From Bacilli bacterium (GTDB lineage: Bacteria; Bacillota_I; Bacilli_A; ML615J-28; CAG-698), in assembly GCA_045598145.1 (NCBI GenBank), contig JAZLLM010000085.1, positions 7,303-71,302 of the forward strand: 64,000 nt of DNA, given 5' to 3'. The translations under genes and the position numbers were made by a program. Positions 4,969-11,046 of the stretch are shown piece after piece (position 1 is the first letter of the stretch; each line of letters opens with the position of its first letter). Under the pieces are notes generated by a model. That model was given only the letters and a program-made list of their open reading frames with translations, was not told the DNA's origin and made no database searches.

Positions 4969-6482
4969 TTTATTGAATTTAAAACATTTTTACGAATTTC
5001 AGTTAATGATGTTTCTTTAGTTATTTGACCATTTTTAAATACAGTTTGTAAACAACCACGTTTTTCAAGTTGTTTATTTACTTGATCTGTAGCAAAATAT
5101 TGACCATTTTCATCTTTATTAATGAAAATTAAACCCTTTAATGATTTTTTAATACCATTATCTGTTTTAGGATTTTTAAAGATTTCGTGAGGTTTTTTAT
5201 TAATTTCACAATATGTTGCTTTAACAGCTTGACCTAGTTGATCTCTTGTATTATATTGATATGTAAATGAACCGTAACCTAATACTAAGTTACTTGCAGC
5301 AAATCCTTTATCTTCAAGACGTTGATATATTCTAATTTGTCTTTCTAAGTTAATAGAATCTCCATAAATTATACCAATATGGTCATCTAAAATCTTATAA
5401 CCTTTTTCGTTTATATAACCACCAAATTCATTCCATAATGTTTCATACGAACCTTGTTTAATAGCTTGTAAAGTTTCTGTATCATATTTATTTTTATATT
5501 CGTCATAAGCATAAGTATCCCATTCTTGATTAGTATAACCACATATAATATGAACTGGGTCACCGCTATCTGGACGTATAACAACACGTCCATCACGTTT
5601 CATAATATCGTTATGTAATAATTTAGTGTAATTTACAATAACATTCCAATAATCCCAAGTATCAGATACAATAGAAACATAACCTGTTGGATAAATTTCA
5701 TTAATTAAACGTTTATATGTTTCTAATTCATTAACATCACCGCCAGCACACATAACAGAATGTTCTGTTGCAGGAACAGTACCAGCAATTAATTCTTTTG
5801 CCGCATCGATATTATAATATTCTTCTAGTGCTTCAATAGCTGGAATAGTTTCACTACCAGTAAATGCTGTTAAATGTGCCATACCACTTAAAGTTGCTGC
5901 TTCTAATCCAGCCATACCACGCATTGAAAAATCGTGTACTAAAAAAGGATTAACATCAATACCTGTTTTTCGACAATGTTCTGTTAAAGTTTTTAAACCT
6001 AAACGAGCATGTGTAGCACTTGTAACTGGAAGCCATAACTCACAAGAAATTAAAGTTTCCAAATAATTAGTTAACCAGAAAAATTCAGGTAATGTATTTT
6101 TAATAGTCATATAAGGTACTCTAATAGGACATAATGTTCCTTCAGGTAATGCTTTAATTTCAATAGGAAGATAACCTAAATCATGAAGTTTTTCAATATG
6201 CTCTGTTCCTACATTATTAGGACCTAAAAACAAATCAATTCTTCTTTTAAAAGAAGCAATTACTTCTTCTTTAGAACGTTTAAAGAAATTGTTATTAAAT
6301 TCTTTAATAAGATATTTTTTAATAAAATATTGAATACCAAAAACTACAGCACCTTCAGATGCCATTGGAAAGAATTTACGAGAACGTGGTGTTAAATTAG
6401 AATACACCATTGTAGTTCCTTTAGGATATTGATTATGATGGCCTAATTTATAACCATCTGTTGCTAAAATGATATTTTTCAT
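4965..6482 (-). CDS. nadV: nicotinamide phosphoribosyltransferase (NAMPT/NadV) family; candidate Namat-like
   Basis: 505 aa with end-to-end similarity to NAMPT. IILATDGYK vs NILLATDSYK. LPIEIKALPEG vs LPIEIKAVPEG. FWLTNYLETL vs YWLTNWIETIL. VHDFSMRG vs LHDFGYRG. IRPDSGDP vs IRPDSGNP. IYGDSI vs IQGDGV. Confidence 0.85.
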   Translation of the reverse strand: MKNIILATDGYKLGHHNQYPKGTTMVYSNLTPRSRKFFPMASEGAVVFGIQYFIKKYLIKEFNNNFFKRSKEEVIASFKRRIDLFLGPNNVGTEHIEKLHDLGYLPIEIKALPEGTLCPIRVPYMTIKNTLPEFFWLTNYLETLISCELWLPVTSATHARLGLKTLTEHCRKTGIDVNPFLVHDFSMRGMAGLEAATLSGMAHLTAFTGSETIPAIEALEEYYNIDAAKELIAGTVPATEHSVMCAGGDVNELETYKRLINEIYPTGYVSIVSDTWDYWNVIVNYTKLLHNDIMKRDGRVVIRPDSGDPVHIICGYTNQEWDTYAYDEYKNKYDTETLQAIKQGSYETLWNEFGGYINEKGYKILDDHIGIIYGDSINLERQIRIYQRLEDKGFAASNLVLGYGSFTYQYNTRDQLGQAVKATYCEINKKPHEIFKNPKTDNGIKKSLKGLIFINKDENGQYFATDQVNKQLEKRGCLQTVFKNGQITKETSLTEIRKNVLNSIK

Positions 6483-6711
6483 ATTGATTTGGAATTAAAA
6501 TTGTAGGAAACAAGAATATTGTAGCAATTATCAGAGAAATCTTGAGTGATTTCTTGGTAACGATATACTCATCATCATATTTATCATAATCTATTTTAAC
6601 AAAAATAAATGCTACTATAGATATTGATAATGCTATAAAAGCTACCACAAATACTGTTACAGATATGGTGCTTAATCGACCTAATACATTTAAAAAATAT
6701 AGTTCCTTCAT
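6448..6711 (-). CDS. small membrane protein (two predicted TM helices; holin-like candidate)
   Basis: 87 aa; hydrophobic stretches STISVTVFVVAFIALSISIVAFIFV and LIIATIFLFPTILI. Confidence 0.35.
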   Translation of the reverse strand: MKELYFLNVLGRLSTISVTVFVVAFIALSISIVAFIFVKIDYDKYDDEYIVTKKSLKISLIIATIFLFPTILIPNQYEKYHFSNRWL

Positions 6712-6712
6712 T

Positions 6713-6970
6713 TTAATTAATATTTTCTTTTGATTTCCATTTTAGTTTTGCATCTTCAAAATCATAACAATTTCCTTTTGGATGTGAACAATATGTTCCA
6801 TTATTATATTCACATGTTATACATTTAAATTTATAATCATCATTATTACATTTTTTATTCTTTTTTACTTTGGTATCTTTATAATAAAACAAATGATACC
6901 AAATATCAAATATTAACATTGTATTAGCAAGAATTAGTGCTGCTAATACAAAAAATGCTATATTGCTCAT
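6713..6970 (-). CDS. small membrane-anchored Cys-rich protein
   Basis: 85 aa. N-terminal TM segment IAFFVLAALILANTMLIF, then CNNDDYKFKCITCEYNNGTYCSHPKGNC. Confidence 0.35.
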   Translation of the reverse strand: MSNIAFFVLAALILANTMLIFDIWYHLFYYKDTKVKKNKKCNNDDYKFKCITCEYNNGTYCSHPKGNCYDFEDAKLKWKSKENIN

Positions 6971-7383
6971 TCTTCATCTCCTTTCTTCTTGAAGCATCCG
7001 TCTCCTAATTCAGCTTCAAATATTGAACACAGCGGTGATTTATATGGATACGGGCAAGTTTTAGCCAAGTCGCAGTGGTCGCAAGGGCAGCCTTCGGTGA
7101 CATAGTGGTCAAACTCGTACACTGTTCCATCAATAATGATGGTATTCTTCGGCAGTTCCTTTTCCTTTAATTTGTGAACGAATTTATTGATCTGCTTCTG
7201 CTTGTGGTTCATCTTACGTAAGTAGAACCTTTCAAGGCTAAGCATAAAGTCTTGAAATTCCTCTACTGCATCCGCATTTCTTATTTTCGATGAAAGACCA
7301 CAGCATTCTGCTATTTTGGCAAATGCTTTCTCAAAATTTATTTTACATCTGTCATTTACAATTTTTAATTTGTTACTTTTCAT
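6967..7383 (-). CDS. Cys-rich hypothetical protein (putative Zn-binding), compositionally GC-richer than surroundings
   Basis: 138 aa with cysteine cluster CPCDHCDLAKTCPYPYKSPLC...GDGC. Local GC is visibly higher (~45%) than flanks. Start overlaps the upstream gene's stop. Confidence 0.4.
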   Translation of the reverse strand: MKSNKLKIVNDRCKINFEKAFAKIAECCGLSSKIRNADAVEEFQDFMLSLERFYLRKMNHKQKQINKFVHKLKEKELPKNTIIIDGTVYEFDHYVTEGCPCDHCDLAKTCPYPYKSPLCSIFEAELGDGCFKKKGDEE

Positions 7384-9742: not shown

Positions 9743-10159
9743 TCAACTTAATTTAATTATTTTAAATGATAATTCTCTACAAATTTTGGCACAATCATCA
9801 AATGTGCCTAAAATATTACGTTTTCTATCATAACATTTGTGATTTTCATTATAAGAAACATTAGGTAAACCTATTCCATGTACTTGAAGTGGTTTTTCCA
9901 CTTCATTGTACATTTTAATATCTTCGGCTATAAGATATCCAAATTTTTTATTCTTAATAAGTTTGCATTCACCAACAATATTTACTGTTGGTGTATCAAC
10001 TAATAAATTGATATTAATATTATTATAATTTACGTTTTTAATTTCTGTCATAATTGATAAATTTAAATTAAATATAAACTCCTCATTAATAAATAAACAA
10101 TAGTAATCTAATATGTTATATGAGGAGTTTATTGTTTTACAATGAAAAACGATATTCAA
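9743..10159 (-). CDS. hypothetical protein
   Basis: 138-aa ORF. Confidence 0.35.
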   Translation of the reverse strand: MNIVFHCKTINSSYNILDYYCLFINEEFIFNLNLSIMTEIKNVNYNNININLLVDTPTVNIVGECKLIKNKKFGYLIAEDIKMYNEVEKPLQVHGIGLPNVSYNENHKCYDRKRNILGTFDDCAKICRELSFKIIKLS

Positions 10160-10322
10160 CGTTATCGTTTGTTTTATTACCGTACCATTGAGCTACAGTA
10201 ATTAATGCAGCTTCAAAATATGATATATTAAGATGTCTAGCTTTACGTTCTCGTGGTGTAAGTGCAGGACGATACGTTTTCGCCTCTTCTGGCGTACGCA
10301 AAATTTTAATTTTAATTTTCAT
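10137..10322 (-). CDS. small basic hypothetical protein
   Basis: 61 aa, overlaps neighbours at both ends. Confidence 0.25.
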   Translation of the reverse strand: MKIKIKILRTPEEAKTYRPALTPRERKARHLNISYFEAALITVAQWYGNKTNDNVEYRFSL

Positions 10323-10702
10323 ATTTCAAATTTTTCAATTAATTTGTTGACTAATTCTTCTATAACTTTATCTTCAATACGTTGTATTAAAGATTTTGTT
10401 GCAATTGTTGCATTTGGTAATTGCGTATGGATATTTTTACCCATTACTTTTGACGAAGATACAGTAAAAACTGTTTCTTGTTTTCTTAGTACTCCATACC
10501 AACGGCTGGCTATAGCATTTAAAGTCCTTTTCTCTTCTAAAAGAGAAAATGCTTTTTTAAATGCTTTTGATAAATTAAATGGATTTTCTTTAACACAATT
10601 AATAATAATTGTGTCTTCTTCTTTAGTGTAATGAAGAATTTTTTTGTTTGAATTTCGTTGTTCTTTCATAAAAATGCGAAATGTAATCAAGTAAAAAACC
10701 AA
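10319..10702 (-). CDS. putative Myb/SANT-like HTH DNA-binding protein
   Basis: 127 aa. HYTKEEDTIIINCV...NLSKAFKKAFSLLEEKRTLNAIASRWYGVL resembles a Myb/SANT repeat (acidic run, conserved W...L). True start is probably an internal Met (MKEQRNS). Confidence 0.35.
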   Translation of the reverse strand: MVFYLITFRIFMKEQRNSNKKILHYTKEEDTIIINCVKENPFNLSKAFKKAFSLLEEKRTLNAIASRWYGVLRKQETVFTVSSSKVMGKNIHTQLPNATIATKSLIQRIEDKVIEELVNKLIEKFEI

Positions 10703-10746
10703 TATGGTAAGAACACTTGATTTTGTTGTTCTTTTTAAGTTTTAAC

Positions 10747-11046
10747 TTAACTGTTTATATTTTTTATGTTATTTTTTAATTCGTAGAATGTGTTTTTGTA
10801 AAATGCTTTAATTTTTGAAAAAATATCATCTGGTACTTCTACTAATCCAATTAACGATAAATTGAAAAAGTATCTACTTGCTTTGTTTGGTCGAAATGAC
10901 CATAACATACAAATTATCCCTAATATAGTTCCTGTTACAAACAGGAATACACAAAATGGAATAAGTATAACTGTTAAAATAATTACTGTTGCAGTTAAGA
11001 TTACAGTTTCAATTGTAAACCATACAATGTAAAAAAGATGTTTCAT
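10747..11046 (-). CDS. small integral membrane protein
   Basis: 99 aa; two long hydrophobic helices (IVWFTIETVILTATVIILTVILIPFCVFLFVTGTILGIICMLW). Confidence 0.35.
   Translation of the reverse strand: MKHLFYIVWFTIETVILTATVIILTVILIPFCVFLFVTGTILGIICMLWSFRPNKASRYFFNLSLIGLVEVPDDIFSKIKAFYKNTFYELKNNIKNINS

Follow-up and report, generated by a model that had tools for sequence, protein, structure and literature searches.

A small-gene array beside a predicted NAD+ reconstitution pair is probably one lineage's fill of a hypervariable slot in a crAss-like phage

What does a dense block of small genes do beside a predicted NAD+ reconstitution module in a phage genome? The window (the whole 64,000-nucleotide stretch of DNA analysed here) carries such a block on its minus strand at 6448–11046, which the first-pass annotation described as a dense, coupled array of about 16 small ORFs bounded by a tRNA and read as a candidate anti-defence island. 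The array is a real, tightly packed small-gene block: 13 minus-strand ORFs 60 aa or longer occupy 93% of it, compared with a mean of 2% (maximum 18%, at most three ORFs) in 500 shuffles. Junctions between ORFs measure −4, −4, −4, +1, +1, +4 and +8 nt. A codon model built from the window's long genes ranks each of the 14 array units highest in its own frame of six, and does not do so for plus-strand shadow ORFs in the array. The density, the single strand and the coupling therefore held up, but the count did not: the array comprises 12 intact genes and two gene remnants. The product sizes (61–159 aa) were borne out, as were the features ascribed to the products: hydrophobic segments in o99, o85 and o87, a lipoprotein-like leader in o130, Cys-rich sequences in o130 (7 Cys), o138b (9) and o85 (5), and acidic character in o66 (net charge −15) and o130 (−13). 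Four products are predicted to be membrane or lipoprotein-like, and four proteins (o127, o119, o159 and o149) can be partly described.

Homology places the window in a crAss-like phage of the Steigviridae (Asinivirinae). It contains a Pfam Crass_capsid match (8e-189), and its MCP is 63–67% identical to those of cr111_1, cr112_1 and crAss001. The array lies between two flanks:

11128–11212, minus strand: tRNA-Leu(UAA)-like element, read by eye, upstream edge of the slot
4147–6482, minus strand: Namat-like and Adps/Prs-like pair, downstream conserved flank, contiguous with o87
4965–6482, minus strand: Namat-like protein, 505 aa
4147–4968, minus strand: Adps/Prs-like protein, 273 aa

The tRNA-like element is atypical in that its anticodon loop has 8 nt and positions A53.C61 are mismatched. 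It folds at −26.2 kcal/mol (z −3.06) and aligns with a tRNA-Leu of crAss001; neither ARAGORN nor Rfam called it, and the bounding tRNA described earlier is retained as an element read by eye. In relatives, the corresponding place is taken by tRNA-Arg or tRNA-Gln. On the other side, the Namat–Adps pair matches phrog_448 (3e-191), phrog_619 (1e-51) and the Pfam families NAPRTase and NAMPT_N. It is 63–64% (Namat) and 39–43% (Adps) identical to the pairs of cr85_1, cr111_1, cr126_1 and DAC15, and its closest PDB chains (9w5x, 9w5w and 9ke8) score 405–515 bits, compared with 232 bits for mammalian Nampt. Classified by homology, the two genes form a NARP1-type NAD+ reconstitution pair. The array follows closely on a TROVE-like DUF2828 gene (12594–13901) and is itself followed closely by the NAD and helicase genes.

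Starting from the tRNA, the succession of small-ORF slot, Namat, Adps (Prs-like) and replicative helicase recurs in cr85_1, cr111_1, cr126_1 and DAC15. All four relatives retain homologues of Namat, Adps, o198 and the helicase; a homologue of the peptidoglycan hydrolase, which stands between Adps and the helicase, was seen in two of them, cr126_1 and DAC15. Their slots share position and architecture with that of the window and hold same-strand small hypothetical genes: three CDS in cr85_1, five in cr111_1, nine in cr126_1 and 16 in DAC15 (Wulfhauvirus; gp020–gp035), where the slot has a similar span (4.8 kb). DAC15, cr126_1 and cr111_1 have an extra gene of about 141 aa between Namat and Prs that is missing from the window. 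Small TM proteins occur in all four slots, and some slot genes are common to DAC15, cr126_1 and cr85_1, none of these being shared with the window. While the flanks are kept, the content differs: at E ≤ 0.05, the four relatives yield no match to any of the 14 array units. Nor were array genes found in 50,697 phage records, one common C-terminal module excepted, or at 80 other Namat-carrying phage loci, shuffled domains aside. Ten array products form singleton clusters from a single NCBI contig among 15 billion proteins, and a search of 1.84 billion representatives gave them no relative at 50% identity. We infer the rate and mechanism of slot turnover from few events, because only four relatives, each about 64% identical in Namat, were compared.

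The upstream part of the array contains the following units:

10747–11046, minus strand: o99, 99-aa orphan membrane protein, first gene of the array
10319–10669, minus strand: o127, 116-aa Myb/SANT-like single-repeat protein, predicted to bind DNA, putative transcription regulator
10137–10322, minus strand: o61, 61-aa basic orphan, best of six frames, singleton P0016
9743–10051, minus strand: o138a, 102-aa orphan with an ATG at 10051, best of six frames
9514–9741, minus strand: o75, 75-aa basic orphan, best of six frames, singleton P0015
9113–9505, minus strand: o130, 130-aa acidic Cys-rich orphan, singleton P0008
8697–9056, minus strand: o119, 119-aa member of a widespread unannotated phage family
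8213–8692, minus strand: o159, 159-aa protein with a C-terminal domain of about 130 aa
8038–8238, minus strand: o66, gene remnant, the 3′ two-thirds of a gene for a 122-aa acidic protein, 5′-truncated

The only function assigned in the array is that of o127, a Myb-like DNA-binding protein by profile. Alone, o127 matches Pfam Myb_DNA-binding with an E value of 5.7e-4 and 20.4 bits, under the gathering cut-off of 24.4. Myb_DNA-bind_6 is matched by 13 of 19 members of its family (best E 9e-8), and the family profile retrieves c-Myb from the PDB (E 2.8e-10), aligning with the c-Myb repeats. The likeness to Myb/SANT proteins (PF00249/PF13921) thus extends to most family members, which pass Pfam Myb models, but o127 differs in being a single repeat with a short C-terminal helical tail. 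Homologues are present in the library of 1.84 billion representatives. The start of o127 is most likely the internal ATG at 10669, with which the stored gene call (P0010) agrees, and its stop overlaps the start of o61 by 4 nt. For o138a, too, the internal ATG is the most likely start; a 138-aa version beginning at a TTG is unlikely, the stored gene call (P0011) being 102 aa long. No family match was found for o138a in the searches run.

The hydrophobic N-terminal stretch of o99 (residues ~5–48; KD hydropathy peak 2.94) has room for two helices. Its frame is the best of six, it forms singleton cluster P0012, and it has no match in Pfam, PHROG or PDB. The sole match of o75 is a marginal one to phrog_22000 (E 0.0075). 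In o130, hydrophobic residues 6–24 form a lipoprotein-like leader (…LIFNSC, Cys24; lipobox read by eye), which makes the protein a candidate envelope lipoprotein. The family of o119 is marked by the motif (W)SRCEYE…K-x-D…Q…N; a confident structure model predicts a compact alpha/beta fold that has no match, and no solved relative, among PDB folds. The C-terminal domain of o159 (…ALCQLIQLRDCYNDGWKPDWTD…FKDLIEIAKPLL) recurs as the C-terminus of larger modular proteins, with homologues P0003–P0006 measuring 317–501 aa (E 5e-26 to 8e-14). Its AF2 model (pLDDT 68, rising to ~83 for residues 77–158) matched no PDB structure.

The history of o66 can be read by comparison with a relative, locus L086, which encodes a 168-aa o159 homologue (49% identical). 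Relative to L086, the window is missing 1.3 kb, comprising three genes and the 5′ end of the gene for P0020 (122 aa), and the deletion join sits exactly at the o159 stop. o66 lacks an ATG, its sole start being a TTG within o159, and is 84–93% identical to P0020 over residues 59–121 of the latter. As reconstructed from this comparison, the deletion created o66. Beyond the remnant lie:

7860–8037, minus strand: o58x, 58-codon open frame without a start codon, in frame after the o66 TGA by chance
7872–7895, minus strand: terminator-like hairpin, 10-bp stem with 6 G-C pairs, then TTTTGTATT
7380–7829, minus strand: o149, 149-aa protein, GC-richer cassette, GC3 0.40
6967–7383, minus strand: o138b, 138-aa protein, GC-richer cassette, GC3 0.41
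6713–6970, minus strand: o85, 85-aa protein with an N-terminal TM helix (residues 3–21)
6448–6711, minus strand: o87, 87-aa two-TM membrane protein (residues 20–38 and 50–68), singleton P0014

The earlier proposal that 6967–7829 is GC-richer and separately acquired was confirmed: o149 and o138b have a GC3 of 0.40–0.41 against a window median of 0.14. The GC-richer segment is longer, about 1.06 kb, reaching ~8029 and taking in o58x and the hairpin; homology between L086 and the window stops at 8029. We take o58x (GC 0.37) to be a remnant lying on the 5′ edge of this cassette. Its coding score is the weakest of the units, yet it ranks first of six frames, and the searches that took it in returned no homologues. 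A consensus scan of 3000–16500 found 19 terminator-like sites where 3.2 were expected, with that at 7872–7895 the second strongest; it likely divides the array into two transcription units.

A C-terminal module of about 65 aa in o149 (…QCLPYNEQTAKLIGT…) is common to larger modular proteins, and o149 matches P0001, P0002, two human-gut phage records and loci L049, L198 and L199. P0040 and P0041 are 52–62% identical to o138b over residues 71–138; judged by eye from its Cys pattern (CxCxxC…C…C), the Cys-rich C-terminal domain of o138b probably binds zinc. o85 carries a small CxxC…CSHPKGNCYD domain. Its TM half matches P0152 (60%) and its Cys half a 62-aa ORF of locus L197 (45%), there also after an o138b-like gene, so o85 is a mosaic. 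At its 3′ end, o87 shares 35 nt with the start of Namat. o87 weakly matches phrog_3878, of unknown function (E 1.7e-4), and L197 has two 2-TM ORFs at the equivalent position.

We propose that the array is probably the lineage-specific content of a conserved hypervariable accessory slot in the leftward early/middle block of an Asinivirinae crAss-like phage, encoding a mixture of small host-interaction proteins. This is suggested by the conserved architecture with variable content, by the turnover events (the o66 deletion, the GC3 cassette and the mosaic o85) and by the rarity of the singletons. The slot would be bounded upstream by a tRNA gene, here the atypical tRNA-Leu-like element, and downstream by the NARP1-type pair, and its content would turn over through cassette gain, loss and recombination between these flanks. 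One transcription unit would run from o99 to o66. The other would lead from o149, o138b, o85 and o87 without a gap into Namat, Adps, o62 and the peptidoglycan hydrolase, ending at a terminator at 3364–3393. The products, each acting independently, would include one Myb-like regulator, four envelope-targeted proteins, two Cys-rich and probably zinc-binding ones, one protein from a widespread phage family whose fold is unmatched and two built from promiscuous shuffled domains. During early to mid infection, they may modulate transcription, modify the envelope and possibly counteract host immunity; the best counter-defence candidates are the four genes contiguous with the NARP1-type pair (o149, o138b, o85 and o87).

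We infer expression timing and operon structure from the terminator scan and from analogy with crAss001. In that phage, a TROVE-domain protein is among the early gene products, and middle genes serve nucleotide metabolism and replication (PMC8375218); the early genes of phi14:2 are transcribed by the virion RNAP (PMC8375218, PMC10136315). Like these early clusters, the window has in its leftward block uncharacterised small genes, a transcription regulator and a TROVE-domain protein, all ahead of the genes for replication and nucleotide metabolism. It differs in that the array sits at the presumed early/middle boundary, on the downstream side of the TROVE-like gene. Since crAss001 is missing from the phage records that come nearest to the Namat of the window, the comparison phage appears to lack the NAD module.

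Could the array instead be a dedicated anti-defence island, most of its ORFs inhibiting Thoeris, CBASS, restriction or NADase effectors jointly with the NAD+ module? It adjoins a NARP1-type pair, its last four genes contiguous with it, and hotspots of the iLund4u type have been used in EVADES to predict anti-defence genes (bioRxiv 10.1101/2025.06.06.658234). An anti-Thoeris gene, RyDEP, sits inside a NARP1 operon (PMC13232231). As in such hotspots, variable small uncharacterised genes lie between conserved flanks beside a validated counter-defence class; the array genes are also fast-evolving orphans, and o66 is strongly acidic, like DNA mimics. The slot differs in containing no recognised anti-defence protein, which leaves the link positional. 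Searches of Pfam, PHROGs, PADLOC and PDB sequences and two structure searches matched no array protein to a known anti-defence family; no member of the RyR-domain, Tad, Acb, Ocr or Ard families turned up in the slot, and neither the o119 nor the o159 model matches a solved anti-defence structure. Further points against such an island are that acidic o66 is a truncated remnant, that one gene encodes a DNA-binding regulator and that the four membrane or lipoprotein-like products are untypical compared with the cytoplasmic sponges and enzymes listed in the first-pass annotation. Of 108 loci carrying an o119 homologue, only 5 have it within 6 kb of Namat/Adps, and the 80 other Namat loci lack array genes beyond shuffled domains. 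Profile searches assigned none of the genes to structural or replication functions, and their absence from the phage records and syntenic slots sets them apart from conserved core genes. With no match to a known anti-defence protein, the reading is plausible but unproven, and a dedicated island is unlikely.

The membrane proteins can be read equally well in terms of lysis or superinfection exclusion. In a lysis or envelope module, o85, o87 and possibly o99 would be of holin, pinholin or antiholin type and o130 an outer-membrane lipoprotein, partnered in the same transcription unit by lys174 (3412–3936), a signal-anchored glucosaminidase (Pfam Glucosaminidase, E 6e-17; endolysin PHROGs; N-terminal hydrophobic anchor). 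The TM helices of o87 and o85, the hydrophobic stretch of o99 and the o130 leader fit this, as do the small TM proteins in all four relatives' slots, the L197 locus, which keeps 2-TM ORFs after o138b-like and o85-like genes, and the lack of a predicted terminator between o149 and hairpin 3364–3393. However, the 2.3 kb NAD module and o62 separate the candidates from the hydrolase, no holin or spanin family was matched (phrog_3878 being of unknown function), o130 has no adjacent i-spanin partner and the early/middle block is an odd place for lysis genes. Accounting for at most four of 12 genes, a lysis module is a quite improbable explanation of the array.

That the slot is a recombination dump of recent, dispensable ORFs being lost without coherent function is very doubtful: two of 14 units are demonstrable remnants, ten are singletons and slot size ranges from 3 to 16 genes across relatives, but all 12 intact ORFs retain frame-specific codon usage like that of the phage's long genes, packing is tight with ATGA overlaps, open frames of 61–159 codons are not kept by chance at 26% GC, and families conserved in many phages include o119, o127 and the domains of o159 and o138b.

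A lineage-specific fill of a hypervariable slot thus remains the preferred reading, and we regard the region as an ordinary phage diversity hotspot. What stood of the island proposal is the hotspot beside a NARP1-like pair; because the one assigned function is Myb-like, two units are decayed remnants and the membrane proteins can be read otherwise, it is this position that makes an anti-defence role of the array plausible. Hotspots of this kind, beside a NARP1-like pair, are where anti-defence genes are sought (bioRxiv 10.1101/2025.06.06.658234).

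The array, a block of small minus-strand genes at 6448–11046, sits among the following elements:

12594–13901, minus strand: DUF2828/TROVE-like (Ro60-like) protein of 435 aa, matching phrog_850 ('RNA-binding protein') at 8e-46
11128–11212, minus strand: atypical or decaying tRNA-Leu(UAA)-like gene
7872–7895: strong terminator-like hairpin with a T-run and a 10-bp stem containing 6 G-C pairs, inside the GC-richer segment of the array
4965–6482: Namat-like gene
4147–4968: Adps/Prs-like gene
3412–3936, minus strand: glucosaminidase-domain protein (Pfam PF01832, 6e-17)
3364–3393: strong terminator

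Thirteen minus-strand ORFs of at least 60 aa cover 93% of the array, compared with a mean of 2% and a maximum of 18% in base-shuffled sequence (n=500), where no more than three such ORFs were ever seen. The genes are tightly packed, with junctions that overlap by 4 nt in three cases and leave gaps of 1, 1, 4 and 8 nt in others. We trained a codon model on 21 long ORFs of the window and scored six frames for each unit: the unit's own frame was the best for all 14, which was not so for the plus-strand shadow ORFs. The contrast with shuffled bases, the tight junctions and the own-frame codon scores together identify the array as real coding sequence, as the first-pass annotation had proposed. Its count of 16 ORFs has to be reduced to 14 distinguishable units, two of them remnants. 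The starts of units o127 and o138a were corrected to the ATG codons at 10669 and 10051, in agreement with the stored gene calls P0010 (116 aa) and P0011 (102 aa), respectively.

The first remnant, o66 (8038–8238), lacks an ATG, and its sole possible start is a TTG within unit o159. A search of representative proteins returned P0020 (122 aa), residues 59–121 of which are 84% identical to o66. On L086, the contig that encodes P0020, a full-length homologue of o159 (49% identity) comes first, then three genes of 202, 76 and 31 aa, and after these the P0020 gene itself. Relative to this order, the window is missing approximately 1.3 kb, from the o159 stop codon to the middle of the P0020 gene. Nucleotide identity to L086, at 93%, restarts at 8208 and ends at 8029, which is 9 nt beyond the shared stop codon. 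The second remnant, o58x (7860–8037), is an open frame that lacks a start codon and by chance follows the o66 TGA in frame. It is located past the L086 breakpoint, within GC-richer DNA, and we interpret it as a gene cut short at the border of an incoming cassette. We rejected TGA recoding or programmed readthrough at the o66/o58x junction because P0020 stops at the same codon, with homology ending shortly thereafter, and because the long late genes of the window are open under the standard code.

The GC3 of the array units o149 and o138b is 0.40–0.41, compared with a median of 0.14 over the 47 window ORFs that reach 120 aa. The suggestion that a GC-richer unit was separately acquired is thereby confirmed, and its borders can be sharpened: the segment extends from about 6967 to the breakpoint at 8029 and includes both o58x and the hairpin at 7872–7895. 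Comparable GC3-rich islands are found at four other places in the window, so patchy acquisition appears to be a general property of this genome. The islands at 19141–19665 (plus strand), 43059–43505 (minus strand) and 43900–46534 (plus strand) have a GC3 of 0.37–0.54, and four consecutive ORFs among the islands sit within the structural block. This suggests that these are other recently exchanged cassettes, possibly with host-recognition genes.

A 149-aa ORF at 15442–15888 on the minus strand (MEDITLGRNG…SEDEDEE) has a GC content of 0.49 and a GC3 of 0.57, in a phage of 29% GC, and its C-terminal tail is acidic. Counting downstream from the divergent intergenic region 16011–16413, it is the first gene, and it gave no match in Pfam, PHROG, INPHARED or PDB sequences. 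First-expressed, foreign-looking and acidic, it is an anti-restriction-type candidate at least as good as anything in the array. Just downstream of this gene, at 15199–15411, a 42-nt repeat (core AATCTTATAATGAAAG) and a 27-nt repeat (AAGAATCTAGTCCCGTCA…) each occur three times. Both are confined to this stretch and absent elsewhere in the window, and they may represent regulatory sites or promoters. A repeated promoter-like motif was sought within the array and none was found.

To place the array in context, we compared it with related phages. The major capsid protein of the window (29634–31085, 483 aa; Pfam Crass_capsid, 8e-189) is 63–67% identical to those of cr111_1, cr112_1, cr106_1, cr85_1 and crAss001, all Steigviridae, and the terminase and portal match crAss-type PHROGs. 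The genes have A-rich leaders without Shine-Dalgarno sequences, in line with Bacteroidota; an exact-DNA scan of GTDB genomes for the host gave no match. The Namat protein is 63–64% identical to those of cr126_1, DAC15, DAC17, cr111_1 and cr85_1. In the four annotated relatives that we inspected (cr85_1, cr111_1, cr126_1 and DAC15), the order is the same: a tRNA, small same-strand hypothetical CDS, Namat, the Prs-like gene, a few genes, and then the replicative helicase and Sak4. The flanks are conserved in all four, with identities of 63–64% for Namat, 39–43% for Adps, 25–30% for o198 (a window protein outside the array) and 40–49% for the helicase. A tblastn search of the four loci with all proteins of the window's minus-strand block also recovered a glucosaminidase homologue (~33%) in DAC15 and cr126_1. 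The content of the slot between tRNA and Namat differs, with 3 CDS in cr85_1, 5 in cr111_1, 9 in cr126_1 and 16, over 4.8 kb, in DAC15. DAC15 and cr126_1 have six slot genes in common, one of which is also present in cr85_1; the window has none of them. Conversely, none of the 14 array units matched the four loci by tblastn (E ≤ 0.05) or the four slots by blastp (E ≤ 0.01).

Wider searches gave a similar picture. Against 50,697 phage records, a concatenated tblastn of the 14 units matched only the C-terminal module of o149, and megablast of 4000–12600 returned a single 317-nt match inside Namat. Shuffled domains aside, no array-like genes lie beside Namat in 80 other phage loci from IMG/VR. 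Ten of the array proteins are singletons among ~15 billion proteins clustered at 90% identity, all from one NCBI contig of 74.7 kb. In a HMMER scan of 1.84 billion representatives, with o159 and o149 outside the query, the best 150 matches included relatives only of o119, o127, o66, the C-terminal domain of o138b and the TM half of o85. A word-indexed search of 5.8 billion proteins matched only o159 and o149, and none of the five upstream genes. Because the flanks are conserved while the window shares no slot gene, the array is best understood as what this lineage carries in a hypervariable slot that is itself conserved. Traces of gain and loss, namely the 1.3-kb deletion and breakpoint relative to L086, the cassette with a GC3 of 0.40 and the mosaic unit o85, fit this assignment. 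We conclude that this is a phage diversity hotspot, ordinary but well defined, with new content.

The upstream border of the slot, annotated at first pass as a tRNA, is recognizable by eye but was missed by both detection programs: ARAGORN reports no tRNA in the window, and Rfam none at 11128–11212, even at E ≤ 10 on 456 nt. The acceptor stem of the element is 7 bp long, the D arm is of Leu type, the variable arm is long and the T-loop reads TTCGAGT; the element can be aligned with a tRNA-Leu of crAss001. It departs from a canonical tRNA in having an anticodon loop of 8 rather than 7 nt (UUUAAAAA) and an A·C mismatch in place of the G53–C61 pair. We read it as a tRNA-Leu(UAA)-like gene, atypical or decaying; it could be a tRNA in decay, an unusual decoder, or an artefact of a homopolymer sequencing error. 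A role as a Y-RNA-like partner of the TROVE-like protein was considered and rejected: Rfam gives no support for a Y RNA, either for the element itself or near 12594–13901, and the tRNAs found at that position in relatives are ordinary, which makes the atypical or decaying tRNA the simpler reading. Elsewhere, Rfam reports a marginal tRNA at 19008–19084 on the plus strand (29.6 bits, with a gathering score of 29).

The hairpin at 7872–7895 divides the array into o99 through o66 on one side and o149-o138b-o85-o87 on the other. The latter four genes run without gaps into Namat, Adps, o62 (a window protein outside the array) and the glucosaminidase gene, and end at the strong terminator at 3364–3393, which makes an organization into two transcription units likely. 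In crAss001, the injected virion RNA polymerase is believed to transcribe the early operon, whose genes include those for a transcription regulator and a TROVE-domain protein, and the middle genes serve nucleotide metabolism and replication (PMC8375218, PMC10136315). The DUF2828 protein of the window is the counterpart of the crAss001 TROVE early protein. As the array is flanked immediately upstream by the gene for this protein and immediately downstream by the NAD and helicase genes, it would, by analogy with crAss001, sit at the presumed boundary between early and middle genes. The glucosaminidase shares its likely transcription unit with the NAD module and has an N-terminal hydrophobic anchor (MKKLNKADIVVIIIVLFFFTAYC); its sequence looks like that of a signal-anchored or lipoprotein-type endolysin.

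The Nampt-like neighbour of the array (505 aa) matches phrog_448 at 3e-191, and the adjacent Prs-like gene product (273 aa), whose gene overlaps it by 4 nt, matches phrog_619 at 1e-51. A Prs-like gene is also present in 78 of 80 Namat-bearing phage loci. NARP1 consists of Namat and Adps, and a selectivity clamp and specificity for ADPR-PP are features of the Namat type (PMC12774641). Judged by sequence, the neighbouring pair has the two-gene Namat-Adps architecture. The PDB chains closest to the window Namat are 9w5x, 9w5w and 9ke8 (405–515 bits over the full length), labelled 'nicotinamide phosphoribosyltransferase' by their depositors, compared with 232 bits for mammalian Nampt. DAC15, cr126_1 and cr111_1 have an extra gene of ~141 aa between Namat and the Prs-like gene, annotated as 'phosphoheptose isomerase' in cr126_1 and cr111_1 and as 'hypothetical protein' in DAC15. 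This gene, absent from the window and from cr85_1, may contribute an accessory component to the NAD module of crAss-like phages.

Several array products can be characterized individually; for o61, o75, o138a, o99, o130 and o87, no relatives were detected. On its own, o127 scores 20.4 bits, below the Pfam cut-off of 24.4 bits, whereas its family matches PF13921 in 13 and PF00249 in 12 of 19 members (best E 7e-9), and the family profile matches c-Myb in the PDB (1h88_C) with an E value of 2.8e-10. These profile matches mark o127 as a Myb/SANT-like DNA-binding protein. A second such protein, o62, was rejected (hhalign probability 3.7%). The o119 family is widespread: 168 stretches were confirmed in IMG/VR and 29 in MAG contigs, mostly on gut phage contigs of 100–190 kb or in Bacteroidales bins, and the family is covered by no Pfam or PHROG model. 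Its fold is confidently predicted and has no solved relative, and an invariant E…KxD…Q…N constellation suggests an enzyme or a ligand-binding site. A search for conserved o119 partners found only clade-specific neighbours (ThyX, a small lipoprotein and TM proteins), in at most 27 of 107 loci. On one 7.8-kb contig (ENA ERZ1767612), an o119-family gene lies between a PHA02142-like (RNA-ligase-like) gene on one side and, on the other, a gene with HD and AAA_33 domains (polynucleotide-kinase-like) and an NT5C gene, a neighbourhood of RNA repair or nucleotide metabolism that is a single observation.

Other units are modular. A C-terminal domain of ~130 aa in o159 is also terminal in modular proteins of 317–501 aa; the o159 model is mediocre (pLDDT 68) and matched nothing in the PDB. 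The last ~65 residues of o149 likewise recur at the ends of other modular proteins. No informative Pfam or PHROG annotation was found for the partner domains of these homologues, exact-sequence look-ups of o159 and o119 in contig records gave no match, and scans of IMG/VR with o149 and with the DUF2828 protein yielded no relatives. Both o149 and o159 belong to a domain-shuffled network in gut phage contigs, together with P0001–P0006 and o230 (window 11833–12525). The network combines, in different ways, an N-terminal 'LLxDAPKGTKLYSPICGE' domain, repeated 'PKFKVGDxV' SH3-like modules (phrog_7488 and phrog_3444, of unknown function), the o159-type C-terminal domain and the o149-type C-terminal module. 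An unrelated contig of 40% GC (L197) carries o138b-type and o85-type Cys-rich domains in adjacent genes, followed by two 2-TM ORFs. Because of this equivalent order, we regard o138b, o85 and a 2-TM protein as a recurring small module, and o85 as a mosaic, since its N-terminal TM segment has its own separate homologue. Hydrophobic helices are present in o99, o85 and o87, and o130 has a lipoprotein-like leader. These four lie 2.5 kb from the glucosaminidase gene and were considered for lysis functions, yet none matches a lysis-category PHROG or Pfam family, and no i-spanin adjoins o130.

The first-pass annotation had interpreted the array as an anti-defence island. The position of a hotspot beside an NAD module favours this reading, but no sequence, profile or fold match to an anti-defence family was obtained. 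The 14 units gave none in Pfam-A and PHROGs (E ≤ 0.01), and phmmer against PDB sequences (E ≤ 1) gave no match at all. PADLOC, run on the 10 units from o138a to o87, reported no anti-defence family, and the structure models of o119 and o159 matched no solved anti-defence fold. The families considered were Tad1/Tad2, Acb1/Acb2, Apyc1, Ocr, ArdA/KlcA, RyDEP and others. Across Pfam, PHROGs and PADLOC, the array yielded only the weak Myb match and three marginal PHROGs of unknown function. Equally, no array gene was assigned a structural or replicative function, and none is a core gene, the 14 units being absent from the variable slot of all four relatives. The array includes at least one regulator, four envelope proteins with other plausible roles and two pieces of debris. 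The positional argument is respectable: diversity hotspots beside known counter-defence genes have been used to predict new ones (bioRxiv 10.1101/2025.06.06.658234), and one anti-Thoeris glycosidase is encoded by an insertion within a NARP1 operon (PMC13232231). The original observation was largely right, and anti-defence, argued from position, is a reasonable hypothesis for some of the genes, chiefly the four joined to NARP1 and possibly o119.

Among the viruses of the human gut, crAss-like phages are the most abundant, and to our knowledge almost nothing is known about how they handle Bacteroides immunity. A NARP1-type NAD+ reconstitution pair is present in a Steigviridae clade to which the cultured phages DAC15 and DAC17 belong, and the content of the slot directly upstream of this pair is swapped between genera; the window presents a completely new fill. 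Taken alone, the array is no more than an ordinary set of phage ORFans. What makes it valuable is a defined list of gut-phage candidates for roles in counter-defence, superinfection exclusion or regulation: the four genes joined to the NAD module, a widespread family with a possibly new fold, and a Myb-like regulator. Cultured relatives exist in which the slot concept can be tested. That at least one slot gene encodes a new class of counter-defence or host-takeover protein cooperating with NAD+ reconstitution seems to us rather unlikely; if so, the o119 family and the o138b-o85-o87 trio fused to NARP1 would be the leading candidates. Were it true, the tRNA-to-Namat slot of the Asinivirinae crAss-like phages would offer a wealth of anti-defence genes, directed against Bacteroides immunity and open to experiment.
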